DNA of 12,178 nucleotides from a virus (IMGVR_UViG_3300022538_000930), one strand, 5' to 3'; positions 1 through 12,178 are shown, counted from the stretch's first letter. Numbers and translations: made by a program. Notes: generated by a model from the letters alone, not told the origin.

Positions 1-141
1 ATAGTTATAGAGGAAGCAAACACTCTTTAATGAATTTCTTCAACATAACAGAAGAGGAGATAGCATGAAACACATAAGAGCATCATTTGAAGATGAAGAA
101 TTTAAGCCAATTAGTAAGCTGAAAGACAAGCTCAAAAAAGG
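1..141. repeat. Terminal overlap, copy 1 (identical to 12038-12178); the contig closes into a ~12,037-bp unit
   Basis: Base-by-base comparison: atagttatagaggaagc...gacaagctcaaaaaagg is present at both ends, 141/141 identical. ORFs read through the junction undisturbed (1-68 is the 3' end of the ORF seen at 11857-12105). Confidence 0.95.
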
Positions 142-1066: not shown

Positions 1067-1099
1067 GCCTCGCAAGAGGCGTTTTATATTTTTTAATTT
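1067..1099 (+). terminator. Hairpin (gcctc-gcaa-gaggc) followed by a T-rich tract
   Basis: A 5-bp GC stem with a GNRA loop lies at 1067-1080, followed by gttttatattttttaattt. It sits at the end of the + strand mini-ORF chain. Oligo-T tracts terminate archaeal transcription. Confidence 0.55.
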
Positions 1100-1104
1100 A
1101 TCAG

Positions 1105-1160
1105 GGAGATGCGATGGAACTGGATGAAGTCTGGCGCAGGTTCGAATCCTGCCGTCTCCA
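1105..1160 (+). other. tRNA-like acceptor/T-arm minihelix (tRNA gene fragment, not a complete tRNA); possible att core or processing signal
   Basis: gcagg-ttcgaat-cctgc (1136-1152) is a canonical T-arm with a GTTCGAATC loop. It is followed by a 7-nt acceptor 3' strand cgtctcc and discriminator a (1153-1160). ggagatg (1105-1111) can pair with that strand using one G-T pair. Only 24 nt separate the two strands, no D or anticodon stem can be drawn there, and position 8 is C rather than T. Confidence 0.6.
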
Positions 1161-1225
1161 TTGGGGGGTAGACGCTGCTGAATAGTTAGTGGTCGCCTCC
1201 CGCTAACAATCCGGAAAGACGGGGA

Positions 1226-1420
1226 TTATTTTAATTTAGTTTTGCACTGCACAAAGGCAACAAAACAGATCTTCTTCATTTGAGAACTCTCTTTAATCAG
1301 AATAACATCAAATGGGCTTTTAGAGCCAGCTGTTCTCACAGCAATCCAGCCTTTTTCTTTAAAGATATTTACAACTTCTTGTTCAAGTCTTCTTCCTCTT
1401 TCATAGTTTTTGTTTGGCAT
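1226..1420 (-). CDS. 64-aa Hjc-type (archaeal Holliday-junction resolvase / PD-(D/E)xK) mini-nuclease, C-terminally short
   Basis: YERGRRLEQEVVNIFKEKGWIAVRTAGSKSPFDVILIK....FVAFVQCKTK parallels the Hjc pattern from memory: ER..V..L...GF.VVR...SGSK..PDIIA....IEVKS. The conserved E, the R..GS motif and the D are present. The final motif reads Q-C-K instead of E-x-K. The ORF ends 5 residues later, whereas Hjc proteins are usually ~120-140 aa. Confidence 0.6.
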   Translation of the reverse strand: MPNKNYERGRRLEQEVVNIFKEKGWIAVRTAGSKSPFDVILIKESSQMKKICFVAFVQCKTKLK

Positions 1421-1783
1421 ATTTTAAGGGGCAGGATGAAAAAGATGGTATCTAATGAATTGTGCATTTGAAAGCAGAACTCGCCTGCCCTATATTTAGA
1501 AGGGGCCTGTCTATATATACTTTTGGATTTCCGTCTATAACAGGAAATTATAGATTGCTCTAAAATGCTTGTTGAGGCAGCAATCCAGCTGCTCCGAATG
1601 GAGCCCTTGACGCTGAAACGAGCTTTTTCGGCTCATCTAAGCTACCTAAGGACAGGCATGGCTTAAGATTAACACAACTTACAGCCTGTGATTCTTCCCT
1701 TAATTAATTAAATTTGCTCCCTATGGACTTAACCAAACCCCACCTTTCGATACTGATGACGATAACGGGAACTTCGAGGCGCC

Positions 1784-1945
1784 TTACACGTGACTTTCTT
1801 TTGTATATTGACCTTTAGATAACTCAGGAAACAATAATTCTCCATTTTGTTTTCTAATTTGAGAGTACTTAAGTTTCTTTAACTCTTCCTGCTCCCACTC
1901 TTCTAATTGATATGCATGAACTGAGAACGGAAAGTTAAAAGCCAT
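1784..1945 (-). CDS. 53-aa hypothetical protein (shorter start preferred over track ORF 1784-2053)
   Basis: The sequence is MAFNFPFSVHAYQLEEWEQEELKKLKYSQIRKQNGELLFPELSKGQYTKESHV. The ATG (A at 1945) lies 30 nt downstream of the palindromic TATA box ttatataa (1968-1975), the same spacing as the other promoters. The longer N-terminal extension would overlap a predicted + strand promoter at 2019. Confidence 0.4.
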   Translation of the reverse strand: MAFNFPFSVHAYQLEEWEQEELKKLKYSQIRKQNGELLFPELSKGQYTKESHV

Positions 1946-1967
1946 GAATAATAGAGGGGATTGTTGT

Positions 1968-1975
1968 TTATATAA
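1968..1975 (-). promoter_or_regulatory. TATA box (ttatataa) for the minus-strand 53-aa ORF
   Basis: The distance from the TATA start to the ATG is 30 nt, matching the 27-30 nt rule seen at the other promoters in this genome. Confidence 0.4.
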
Positions 1976-2018
1976 GGTGTTGAGTACTTGAAAATAACAG
2001 CACTCTAACGAAGAAAGA

Positions 2019-2026
2019 TTTATATA
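2019..2026 (+). promoter_or_regulatory. Orphan BRE/TATA-like promoter (agaaaga-tttatata) with no substantial ORF downstream
   Basis: gaagaaagatttatatag closely resembles the capsid-operon promoter cagaaagatttaaatata at 8626-8641. The only ATG at roughly the right distance (2044, 25 nt) opens a 24-codon ORF. The next real gene starts at 2454. Confidence 0.4.
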
Positions 2027-2120
2027 GATAGAAGACTTTAGAAATGTACTCATTTCTACATACCAACATACATAAGCCCTCTTTGTTAGAGTGCATAAAG
2101 GCTCTCACGGCCACATAGAC

Positions 2121-2224
2121 CCCGCGCCTTCCCTTCTTAAGAAGTATGTGCAGTCTAAGCTTAGCTTACATAGTCTCTTGGGAGCAGAATTATTTAGGTA
2201 CACGCGAATTAAGAAGACCGCGGG
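2121..2224. repeat. Interrupted inverted repeat (cccgcg..cttcttaa / ttaagaag..cgcggg) enclosing two perfect palindromes
   Basis: 2121-2126 is complementary to 2219-2224, and 2133-2140 to 2209-2216, giving 14 bp with an asymmetric internal loop. Inside are cttcttaagaag (2133-2144, a 12-bp perfect palindrome) and ctaagcttag (2155-2164, a 10-bp perfect palindrome). Confidence 0.6.
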
Positions 2225-2230
2225 CTAATT

Positions 2231-2278
2231 GGGGTGTAATCACTACTAATCAGTAGTGACACCCCTTTATAGTAGTGA
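2231..2278. repeat. 14-bp bulged hairpin plus a third copy of its arm motif (agtagtga)
   Basis: ggggtg (2231-2236) pairs with cacccc (2260-2265), and tcactact (2240-2247) pairs with agtagtga (2252-2259). The loop is aatc and the bulge is taa. agtagtga recurs as a direct repeat at 2271-2278. Confidence 0.6.
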
Positions 2279-2314
2279 TTTGTTCACTTAGGTCACCTTA
2301 GTGCACAACAGAAT

Positions 2315-2436
2315 AATTCCCGGAAATTTTCACTTGAAAAAAAGCGGGAAATTTAAAAGAACGCGACATTCAAATTCCTGCATATATAAGTTCGCTTATC
2401 CCGACCGACAAAATTTTAGAAAATTATTTAAATTCC
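2315..2436. promoter_or_regulatory. Cluster of GGAAATT / AATTCC half-sites across the terL upstream region
   Basis: aattcc occurs at 2315-2320, 2373-2378 and 2431-2436, the last overlapping the TATA box. ggaaatt occurs at 2322-2328 and 2347-2353. The first two sites form an imperfect palindrome, aattcc-c-ggaaatt. Confidence 0.3.
2427..2434 (+). promoter_or_regulatory. TATA box (tttaaatt) for terL, leaderless spacing
   Basis: It lies 27 nt upstream of ATG 2454 in an AT-rich context. Confidence 0.5.
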
Positions 2437-2453
2437 AAAATATTATAATTATT

Positions 2454-11729: not shown

Positions 11730-11860
11730 AAGTCGGAAATACATCTATTGAAAATGAACACGGATTGTTCGAGCAAGAATGTGATTGTAATATGTTTCCT
11801 TGTAATTGTTATTATCAAGATAATAAAGGTCATTGGAAGAAGAAAGAGGATAAAAAATGA
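11726..11860 (+). CDS. 44-aa Cys-knuckle mini-protein
   Basis: Hand translation gives MKVGNTSIENEHGLFEQECDCNMFPCNCYYQDNKGHWKKKEDKK*. The motif is CxC-x4-CxC. It has ATGA overlaps at both ends. Confidence 0.5.
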   Translation: MKVGNTSIENEHGLFEQECDCNMFPCNCYYQDNKGHWKKKEDKK

Positions 11861-12105
11861 AACTTAAAACTTTGAAGGACTTTATAAAAGGATATGAAGG
11901 ATTTGGCAGCTATCCAAAAGATAAGCACATTTCTGTGTGTATTATTAGAGCATTTGATGAATTAAAACAAGAAGCAATCAAGTGGATGAAGCATTTTGAT
12001 GGTTGTATGAAAAACACCAAAAGTGATACTGCTTGGCATAGTTATAGAGGAAGCAAACACTCTTTAATGAATTTCTTCAACATAACAGAAGAGGAGATAG
12101 CATGA
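11857..12105 (+). CDS. 82-aa hypothetical protein
   Basis: ORF track. It has ATGA overlaps at both ends. Its last 68 nt are repeated at 1-68 because of the terminal overlap. Confidence 0.65.
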   Translation: MKLKTLKDFIKGYEGFGSYPKDKHISVCIIRAFDELKQEAIKWMKHFDGCMKNTKSDTAWHSYRGSKHSLMNFFNITEEEIA

Positions 12106-12178
12106 AACACATAAGAGCATCATTTGAAGATGAAGAATTTAAGCCAATTAGTAAGCTGAAAGACAAGCTCAAAAAAGG
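12038..12178. repeat. Terminal overlap, copy 2 (identical to 1-141)
   Basis: See copy 1. The partial ORF beginning at ATG 12102 is the same gene as 65-208. Confidence 0.95.

Follow-up and report, generated by a model that had tools for sequence, protein, structure and literature searches.

The segment at positions 1105-1160 of the window (the whole stretch of viral DNA analyzed here, 12,178 nt) carries a tRNA-like minihelix which belongs to a family of elements present in about 30 low-GC viral contigs. In all of them, the T-arm is constant and the acceptor stem is paired, whereas the middle varies freely. As judged from covariation, the minihelix is shown to be under selection at the RNA level. 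Together with the adjoining sequence, up to position ~1239, it may form a small non-coding RNA gene, the tRNA-like 5′ domain of which would be a handle cut by RNase P and tRNase Z; we give this reading about an even chance of being correct. Elements of this general kind, namely tRNA-like processing elements and tRNA mimics, are already known. By contrast, a conserved family of viruses' elements that swap their acceptor stems, leave the insert free and form tandem arrays appears undescribed, as does the coupling of this family to a widespread hairpin motif that is absent from Rfam.

The minihelix and its genomic setting

The window represents the complete closed genome (~12 kb, with a direct terminal repeat of 141 nt) of a small tailed virus, is represented in run SRR7716471 and encodes the large terminase (TerL; true start at 2454), the portal and the major capsid protein. 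The terminase falls within a clade of more than 300 proteins, the largest contigs of which are 11-13 kb in length. Because TTTAAATA-like boxes are located 27-29 nt upstream of the ATG of operon-first genes, Shine-Dalgarno sequences are lacking and an Hjc-like resolvase is encoded, the expression signals and gene content point to a host of archaeal type. One related element sits on a contig binned as Pacearchaeota. None of the larger ORFs of the window matched an integrase in searches against PHROGs and Pfam, consistent with the sequence-only reading, which had recognized none.

All coordinates given in that reading were reproduced (Table 1), including the complementarities between 1153-1157 and 1170-1174 and between 1104-1114 and 1193-1201. 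The canonical tRNA parts retained within 1105-1160 are a 7-bp acceptor stem (six Watson-Crick pairs and one U.G pair), a 5-bp T-stem with a GTTCRANYC loop, and the discriminator; absent is the cloverleaf, for which a D-arm and a 7-nt anticodon loop on its own arm would be required. Indeed, as had been proposed, the D and anticodon arms are missing, with only 24 nt separating the acceptor strand from the T-stem. This insert can form a weak hairpin of 5-6 bp at 1120-1134, the loop of which (3-5 nt) is too short for an anticodon arm. The minimum-energy fold of 1105-1160 computed with RNAfold is exactly the minihelix (-19.3 kcal/mol); since the energy z-score is only -1.4, thermodynamics alone is indecisive.

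Table 1. Features around the tRNA-like element, in coordinates of the window
Feature	Position	Strand	Basis or remark
G+C-rich hairpin GCCTC GCAA GAGGC	1067-1080	+	sequence and fold
T-rich run after the upstream hairpin	1081-1096	+	contains the TATA-like ttttatat
5′ acceptor strand GGAGATG (RNA GGAGAUG)	1105-1111	+	pairs with 1153-1159
Insert in place of the D and anticodon arms	1112-1135	+	24 nt, hypervariable; fold
T-arm: GCAGG / T-loop TTCGAAT / CCTGC	1136-1140 / 1141-1147 / 1148-1152	+	sequence, Rfam, fold
3′ acceptor strand CGTCTCC (RNA CGUCUCC)	1153-1159	+	sequence
Discriminator A (A73)	1160	+	sequence; CCA not encoded
Second module: stem-loop closed by GGGGGG (1163-1168) / CCUCCC (1196-1201)	1163-1201	+	centroid structure
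Conserved hairpin motif: CUAACA / stem AUCCG	1203-1208 / 1209-1213	+	comparative
Conserved hairpin motif, continued: loop GAAAGA / stem CGGGG	1214-1219 / 1220-1224	+	comparative
U-rich tail AUUAUUUUAAUUUAG	1225-1239	+	likely 3′ end of a plus-strand transcript
Hjc-type resolvase ORF (short)	1226-1420	-	

Several lines of evidence support the earlier view that the element is not a functional tRNA gene. ARAGORN identified no tRNA genes in the window, and thus no full tRNA at the site, as had been anticipated; the predicted fold has no anticodon loop; and the sole Rfam match of the window is a sub-threshold one to the tmRNA model (RF00023; 22.3 bits versus a gathering score of 47, E = 9e-6), in which both ends of the minihelix are joined and 316 model positions are replaced by 9 nt. 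In a purpose-written scan, a site had to combine the T-loop consensus with a T-stem of 5 bp and a 3′ strand of 7 nt, the complement of which lies at most 110 nt upstream. The window contains one such site, whereas dinucleotide-preserving shuffles contain 0.017 on average (five of the 300 shuffles had one). It is thus confirmed that the minihelix is real rather than a chance match. The evidence that we consider decisive is comparative, that is, the occurrence of the same architecture, with compensatory changes, at about 30 other loci.

The hairpin and T-rich run located upstream of the minihelix constitute the sole terminator-like site in a scan of positions 900-2500 and represent a terminator-like end of the small-ORF operon. 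In the closest relative, L183, a co-varying hairpin, CCCTC AATTA GAGGG, lies immediately upstream of both its elements. On the other side of the Hjc-like gene, the ORF-free region at 1421-2453 displayed no homology to the non-coding RNA arrays of the relatives.

Family of tRNA-like elements and covariation of the acceptor stem

A scan of metagenome contigs for the exact 22-mer GGTTCGAATCCTGCCGTCTCCA yielded 32 loci. About eight of these are ordinary tRNAs of high-GC bacteria or belong to phage tRNA arrays, and about 24 are located in low-GC viral contigs (0.29-0.36). In the latter, the 5′ strand GGAGACG or a wobble-compatible variant thereof occurs 38-83 nt upstream of the 22-mer; it should be noted that the 5′ acceptor strand was not included in the search pattern. 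The contigs carrying the tRNA-like family are viral, encoding D5-type primase-helicases, terminases and Laminin_G tail-fibre proteins. Inserts range from 21 to 66 nt, are unrelated in sequence between loci and share no conserved motif, the shortest ones (21-24 nt) having little structure. Several contigs contain two to four copies (four in L037, two each in L021 and L183), and in the arrays of L021, L037, L038 and L183 the units are arranged head to tail. Such arrays merge into arrays of true tRNAs. Furthermore, some members (L038, L019/L037a) retain D-arm-like pieces, which suggests that their ancestor was a genuine tRNA, perhaps a class II one, and the same acceptor and T-arm sequences are present in class II tRNA-Ser/Tyr of bacteria and phages.

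Two other readings of the element were rejected. Translation of a peptide with a conserved ATG-GAG-ACG start and a constant 3′ end is at odds with the element lengths, which are evenly distributed over the three reading-frame classes; hence, the conserved ATGGAGACG is not a translation start. Nor do the elements represent split or intron-containing tRNAs, since the inserts do not restore a cloverleaf. ARAGORN did produce "calls" on four family members; these had four different anticodons and odd loops.

Closer relatives of the window virus were gathered via the terminase, leaving out the IMG/VR relatives L002-L006, which are too short upstream of TerL. In L029 (12,049 nt; TerL 37% and portal 28% identical to those of the window virus), a 72-nt element is syntenic with that of the window: it lies on the same strand, about 1.2 kb before TerL and after a small-ORF operon that includes a homolog of window positions 11857-12105. 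In L016, the major capsid protein of which is 26% identical, the element measures 55 nt and shows a double change, U6-A67, relative to the C-G pair of most members. Of particular interest are the close relatives (69-78% identity in TerL), in which the T-arm and A73 are kept and the acceptor helix is entirely changed yet fully complementary. Thus, L182/L183 (TerL 78%) contain two tandem units with the stems GGCAGAG/CUCUGCU and GGCAGAG/CUCUGCC, and L177 (TerL 69%) has GCCCCGU/ACGGGGC, whereas L175/L176 (TerL 70%) carry a partly degenerate copy at the syntenic site. The element is absent from some close relatives (L173/L174 and L179/L180) and is therefore accessory.

In an alignment of the constant parts of 31 sequences, 98.1% of the cells are paired, and changes on both sides are found at all seven acceptor pairs (16 cells). 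Not one of 500 shuffles matched the observed pairing and covariation values, and slid controls, in which the partner was shifted by 1-3 columns, were only 37-56% paired. A73 is invariant in all 31 aligned members and the T-arm is nearly so, with the T-stem displaying only wobble-compatible single changes; variants of the 5′ strand are either wobble-compatible (U.G, G.U) or confined to the terminal pair. Because most members were found with the exact 3′ 22-mer, the apparent invariance of the 3′ strand is partly a matter of ascertainment. Conversely, the members with variant stems were found by a scanner that itself requires complementarity; a perfect 7-mer complement within ~100 nt is, however, expected by chance in well under 1% of cases, and these members sit at the expected genomic positions with flanks typical of the family. 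Given that the acceptor stems differ and yet pair, with double changes at every position of the helix, the selected object is an RNA helix and not a DNA att core. Among the possibilities raised earlier for this site, acceptor-stem covariation thus favors the third, a transcribed minihelix that would act as a processing signal.

The downstream module and the GAAAGA hairpin

The minihelix is only the first part of a composite unit. Across the family, the discriminator is followed by the trailer consensus AU(U/C)GGG and by a variable stem-loop, which starts 2-4 nt past the discriminator and ends just before CUGACA; next comes a hairpin with a GAAAGA loop. This layout recurs in L018, L019, L020, L021, L027, L033, L034/36, L037, L038, L049, L175 and L182, with the GAAAGA hairpin located 44-91 nt past the discriminator of the tRNA-like element (11 loci). 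The hairpin stem co-varies (12 double-change cells; 98.8% paired, compared with 12-54% in slid controls). Within arrays, the next tRNA-like unit or true tRNA begins 5-7 nt past the hairpin, and family members continue after it with AUUUAU or AUUUAUUUU. In the window, the corresponding U-rich tail overlaps the stop codon of the convergent Hjc-like ORF. The existence of a larger structured RNA of ~100-130 nt, regarded as conceivable in the sequence-only reading, is supported by a conserved stem-loop and hairpin downstream of the minihelix.

The motif is defined by an invariant GAAAGA loop on a 5-bp co-varying stem, with CUGACA before it and A after it. The window hairpin falls under this definition and nevertheless deviates in detail: it is preceded by CUAACA (one change) and forms four of the five stem pairs, supplemented by flanking A-U pairs, before the A. 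Many family members carry no hairpin at all, and L175 combines an intact hairpin with a decaying tRNA-like part.

The hairpin is distributed far beyond the tRNA-like family. A scan of IMG/VR with the pattern CTGACANNNNGGAAAGACNNNNA (CUGACA-N5-GAAAGA-N5′) returned at least 120 matches, of which 109 have a perfect 5-bp stem, against an expectation of ~2% if the free positions were random. Among the matches listed, the contigs span a G+C content of 0.32-0.68; a tRNA starts 4-8 nt downstream of the motif in 10 of 99 unique cases, often as the first tRNA of an array, and in a similar number a tRNA or a T-arm-bearing fragment lies 35-140 nt upstream. The motif is also found in lambdoid prophages of Escherichia coli (452 of 5,426 genomes), where it occurs twice in an unannotated leader stretching from a PL-like promoter, which follows the repressor gene, to the first early ORF. 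Both leader copies precede an intrinsic terminator. This hairpin is worthy of attention in its own right: abundant in phages, present in hundreds of E. coli prophages and located at the heads of tRNA arrays and in early leaders, it is unannotated and has no counterpart in Rfam, no family of which covered the motif in the window, the arrays or the bacterial-phage examples. A literature search for the hairpin sequence as a string recovered a random synthetic sequence as the sole match.

Known RNA classes were considered for the downstream module and the hairpin, and none was retained. In the window, the arrays and the bacterial-phage examples, the module had no Rfam match to hammerhead, HDV/theta, twister, pistol or hatchet ribozymes, and manual threading through HDV and hammerhead cores failed. 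A CRISPR-repeat mimic was rejected as an identity for the hairpin, the copies being 100-250 nt apart and the site having no match to CRISPR direct repeats. The layout of the E. coli prophage leader is put-like, and the put RNA of HK022 (cf. PMC9378689) was compared by layout and blastn and set aside; in the phage collection, a blastn search for the put-like leader recovered only two Stenotrophomonas phages, and not HK022.

Putative processing, alternative readings and known analogues

The reading that we favor treats 1105-1160 as a tRNA of which only the acceptor stem, the T-arm and discriminator A73 are left, with a freely evolving insert in place of the D and anticodon arms. The element would be transcribed jointly with the adjoining sequence, and host RNase P would cut 5′ of G1105 and tRNase Z 3′ of A1160. 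These two cuts would free the tRNA-like piece and set the 5′ end of the downstream RNA. In the window, this RNA is predicted to be a two-hairpin small RNA of ~75 nt (1161-~1239), ending with the GAAAGA hairpin and the U-tail, whereas in relatives it would be either an mRNA with a short leader or, within an array, the tRNA(-like) unit that comes next. RNase P, tRNase Z and the CCA-adding enzyme require no more of a substrate than an acceptor stem with a T-arm and a discriminator. The parts needed by the ribosome or by most synthetases have been discarded in the tRNA-like elements, and their positions correspond to RNA boundaries, from ORF to ORF, from ORF to small RNA and from unit to unit. A processing handle is best supported because selection keeps precisely the minimal enzyme substrate and because the elements sit at such boundaries.

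The context of the family would also fit co-transcription. An ATG follows 10-40 nt after the element, with no T-run or TATA box between the two, in L007, L016, L023, L025, L029, L032 and L048; in L029, G1 comes immediately after the stop codon of the upstream ORF, and the following gene begins with an ATG 25 nt past A73. No consistent position of a TATA box was found upstream of family members, most of which have neither a suitably spaced box nor a promoter immediately before the element. Should the mechanism hold, a very small virus of ~12 kb would cut its own transcripts by means of host tRNA-maturation enzymes, with a bearing on the production of leaderless or short-leader mRNAs from operons where expression is of archaeal type, and the family would provide a natural set of candidate minimal RNase P/tRNase Z substrates.

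Certain features of the window speak against the handle. The TATA-like ttttatat noted in the sequence-only reading is indeed present at 1082-1089; its spacing to G1105, however, is 22-23 nt as opposed to the 27-29 nt typical of this genome, so that the box is 5-7 nt too close for a transcript starting at or before G1105. Moreover, the T-run ahead of the element should terminate read-through from the operon. Certain DPANN archaea (Nanoarchaeum) are known to do without RNase P, which is a further point against the handle. More generally, a pure processing signal accounts neither for the near-invariance of the T-arm sequence, as opposed to its structure, nor for the dominance of GGAGACG/CGUCUCC across very different viruses, even though part of this pattern is due to ascertainment.

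The near-invariant T-arm and the dominance of a single acceptor sequence leave room for a role in trans, in which the processed and CCA-tailed minihelix would itself be the effector, as a tRNA mimic or as a small RNA built on a tRNA scaffold. It could serve as a decoy or competitor for host factors recognizing the acceptor/T-arm half of tRNAs, among them the CCA-adding enzyme, elongation factors, aminoacyl-tRNA synthetases and toxins that target acceptor ends; alternatively, the constant minihelix would stabilize and present the hypervariable insert as functional cargo. The wholesale swaps of the acceptor stem between close relatives, with T-arm and A73 unchanged, look more like a change of specificity than neutral drift, and the variable inserts between constant ends, the different copies within single genomes (up to four in L037) and the occurrence of the same acceptor and T-arm in class II tRNAs are all in line with such a role. 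The inserts, though, have no common motif, and the shortest are hardly structured. An exact 24-mer search across 185,579 species genomes yielded no matching host tRNA, and the role overlaps with that of a handle in that processing would still be required; on balance, we consider it possible, if rather unlikely. A broader version, which we deem unlikely, is that of a tRNA-scaffolded viral small RNA system coupled to an undescribed CUGACA-stem-GAAAGA-stem hairpin with a function of its own. In this system, the T-arm and A73 could supply processing and stability, and the acceptor stems and inserts could supply specificity, for example, as decoys for host enzymes of tRNA-directed defence or toxicity or as guide-like RNAs; the hairpin could function in processing, antitermination or catalysis in bacterial-type and archaeal-type viruses alike, marking tRNA arrays and early leaders. 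Improbable, in our judgment, is the reverse arrangement, a cis-acting regulatory leader in which the activity would reside in the GAAAGA hairpin, which might, for instance, mediate antitermination in the manner of boxB or put or protect the 3′ end, and the tRNA-like part would be secondary. The hairpin is far commoner than the tRNA-like element, as the 109 perfect stems attest, the E. coli leaders have two copies after the PL-like promoter, each ahead of an intrinsic terminator, and L175 preserves the hairpin alone intact; yet many family members have none, the window copy is off consensus, and only the U-tail and a convergent gene come after it, so that in the window there is nothing downstream to antiterminate.

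The attachment-site explanation advanced earlier, in which the block from the T-arm to the 3′ end would be an attP core matching a host tRNA gene, fares less well. A stretch of 25 nt that exactly matches the 3′ part of a tRNA is the classic form of an att core, the block is shared by many otherwise unrelated elements, and tandem copies are present; the recombinase, of helper or host origin, would have to come in trans, as no integrase is encoded. But every element has the 5′ strand, which changes in step with the 3′ strand up to complete stem swaps, and DNA recombination has no need for such covariation. Much of the apparent identity stems from the exact-pattern search, and what lies between the tandem copies, which are spaced at 100-250 nt, is structured RNA modules rather than element remnants. 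No archaeal tRNA with the 24-mer was found in a set comprising one genome for each of the 185,579 species, in which the host is possibly unsampled; the matches were confined to ordinary tRNA-His/Tyr genes of bacteria and a single contig of viral or plasmid character in a Pacearchaeota bin. No recombinase was matched among the ORFs scanned against PHROGs and Pfam, and no contig contains a virus-host junction at the element, both flanks being viral and the window genome closed. Among the ~45 related loci, which lie on short contigs, no integrated copy flanked by a tRNA and a direct repeat was seen. The attP reading is largely refuted and, in our estimate, very unlikely. The companion suggestion of a scar left by a past integration, or more broadly of a functionless, decayed tRNA gene, is less likely still. 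It would agree with the failure of all tRNA detectors on the element, the D-arm-like pieces in some members and the decaying copy of L175; both helices, however, have been perfectly kept, with 12 of 12 base pairs preserved in about 30 independent loci while everything between was randomized, and the acceptor pairs have undergone compensatory double changes throughout, whereby, on comparative grounds, decay is refuted as a general explanation. Scarcely credible is a miniature tmRNA-like molecule for ribosome rescue or as an SmpB decoy, although the tmRNA covariance model provides the best Rfam match for the window and several relatives. The score is less than half of the gathering score, there is neither a tag reading frame nor a pseudoknot, and pair 3:70 is A-U (A1107-U1157) instead of the G.U that is needed for alanylation and that is found in only one family member (L026). 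Furthermore, the expression signals of the window genome look archaeal and, to our knowledge, archaea have no tmRNA or SmpB.

Handles of the favored kind, i.e., tRNA-like elements that direct processing, have precedents in one herpesvirus and in a small number of cellular systems (Haloferax t-elements, MALAT1/mascRNA). For small prokaryotic viruses, our literature search returned no account of such elements as a conserved, multi-copy family in which acceptor stems are swapped and inserts are free. A further parallel is the punctuation of polycistronic transcripts by tRNAs, as in mitochondria, and the processing of tRNA-mRNA and tRNA-sRNA co-transcripts by RNase P/Z. The viral elements likewise lie between ORFs with no promoter or terminator (e.g., in L029), but the punctuation marks are not functional tRNAs. 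The tRNA-like domain of tmRNA resembles the family in that its acceptor stem and T-arm are joined by non-tRNA sequence; unlike tmRNA, the window element, with its sub-threshold score, lacks the G3:U70 pair, an mRNA-like domain and pseudoknots. HDV-like theta ribozymes adjoin phage tRNAs (PMC10879173) and, similar to the modules described here, are small structured elements located directly after the 3′ end of phage tRNAs in arrays, with a presumed role in tRNA or transcript maturation. These ribozymes are nested double pseudoknots which begin at the tRNA 3′ end and carry a catalytic C in J4/2, past P4. In contrast to them, the window hairpin is followed by AUUAUU... and has no catalytic C, the order P1/P2/P3/P4 could not be fitted, and Rfam ribozyme models had no match in the window, the arrays or the bacterial-phage examples.

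The closest analogues of the window element are the t-elements of Haloferax volcanii and the TMERs (tRNA-miRNA-encoded RNAs) of murine gammaherpesvirus 68 (MHV68). According to two papers that cite the original studies (Hoelzle et al. 2008, 2012, as cited in PMC4326828, PMC7714728), t-elements are tRNA-like and are cut by RNase P and tRNase Z; one of them sets the 5′ end of 5S rRNA, and they have been used experimentally as portable processing handles flanking a cargo RNA. As far as these citing papers describe t-elements, the viral elements, the acceptor/T-arm minihelix of which is selected as RNA, share with them a non-decoding tRNA-like fold, an archaeal-type genetic context and a location next to another RNA, the end of which they would define. 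By the same accounts, t-elements are cellular and few, whereas the elements described here are encoded by viruses in multiple copies, combine a hypervariable insert with a T-arm that hardly varies and are in many cases linked to the CUGACA/GAAAGA hairpin, their cleavage being a prediction. Compared via those papers, the two show no sequence relationship beyond generic tRNA features.

A TMER comprises a tRNA-like element and, downstream of it, two hairpins, which are freed when tRNase Z cleaves at the end of the tRNA-like part (PMC4838037). The window unit is similarly virus-encoded, with a non-decoding tRNA-like element, two stem-loops and a U-run, and in both cases there are several tandem units. 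However, TMERs are 200-250 nt long as compared with ~130 nt in the window, are transcribed by eukaryotic Pol III and have hairpins that are Dicer substrates. We know of no such Pol III/Dicer pathway in prokaryotes. The resemblance is architectural and convergent rather than homologous.

The CUGACA/GAAAGA hairpin motif

On the 3′ side of the tRNA-like element, the window carries a copy of a hairpin motif in which CUGACA precedes a 5-bp stem that co-varies, the loop is always GAAAGA, and an A follows. The motif is widespread, being present at approximately 100 IMG/VR loci among the matches listed; it corresponds to no Rfam family and carries no annotation at the sites checked. It is found ahead of tRNAs and tRNA arrays in phages, and E. 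coli lambdoid prophages have two copies of it in the early-left leader, each followed by a terminator. Additional GAGGAAAGACC half-sites repeatedly occur close to the motif. In the phage contig L230, the motif is located at the head of the tRNA genes, and the same contig contains a Twister-P5 ribozyme.

Coordinates of features in the window and in the loci compared with it
Feature	Sequence	Coordinates	Strand	Details
Direct terminal repeat	window	1-141 and 12038-12178		141 nt
Hairpin motif	window	1203-1224
Hjc-type resolvase ORF	window	1226-1420	minus	64 aa
ORF-poor stretch, Hjc-like gene to TerL	window	1421-2453		~1 kb
Hairpin motif, E. coli prophage early leader	L305	3110-3320
Further degenerate tRNA-like element; tRNA-Ala with acceptor mismatches	L021	5355-5414; 5514-5584
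Twister-P5 ribozyme	L230	9653-9730		42.7 bits, above Rfam gathering score
Region with T-arm/acceptor 25-mer and direct repeat	L001	5769-5900		high-GC IMG/VR contig

Genome organization of a very small tailed virus

The direct terminal repeat identifies the window as a complete genome with approximately 12,037 bp of unique sequence. Contigs of its TerL clade, which has more than 300 members, are 11-13 kb at most, and the clade is a large group of very small tailed viruses from sediments. The first ATG of the operons (2454, 3777, 7166, 8663 and 10012) is preceded, 27-29 nt upstream, by TTTAAATA or TTTATAAA boxes, and none of these five starts has a Shine-Dalgarno sequence, which indicates archaeal-type promoters and leaderless mRNAs.

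The Hjc-type resolvase ORF spans only the N-terminal portion of the Pfam model. A similarly short form (63 aa) is encoded by the relative L175, and in another locus, L027, the short form begins directly after the ncRNA array; the ORF is either a minimal nuclease or a truncated or recoded gene. The adjoining ORF-poor stretch, in which no ORF on either strand exceeds 90 aa and which includes a long perfect hairpin (2232-2266), could be an origin or packaging region. In relatives its sequence is conserved only at 2363-2460, although these, too, are poor in ORFs ahead of TerL.

tRNA-like sequences in other loci

The viral array of 12 tRNAs in L021 includes a further degenerate tRNA-like element (25 bits) with a different acceptor and T-arm, as well as a tRNA-Ala with two acceptor-stem mismatches. 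Contigs L025 and L032 share a conserved leader, GCACAUAAUCUGGG..UUGCGAGUGCAAAAUAAAAU, abutting G1, the first base of the tRNA-like element, although the inserts of their elements differ. The T-arm/acceptor 25-mer recurs in L001, with a 16-nt direct repeat (ccaccgcgctccccta) flanking it; this site resembles the att junction that an unrelated actinobacterial prophage would have at the 3′ end of a tRNA or tmRNA.
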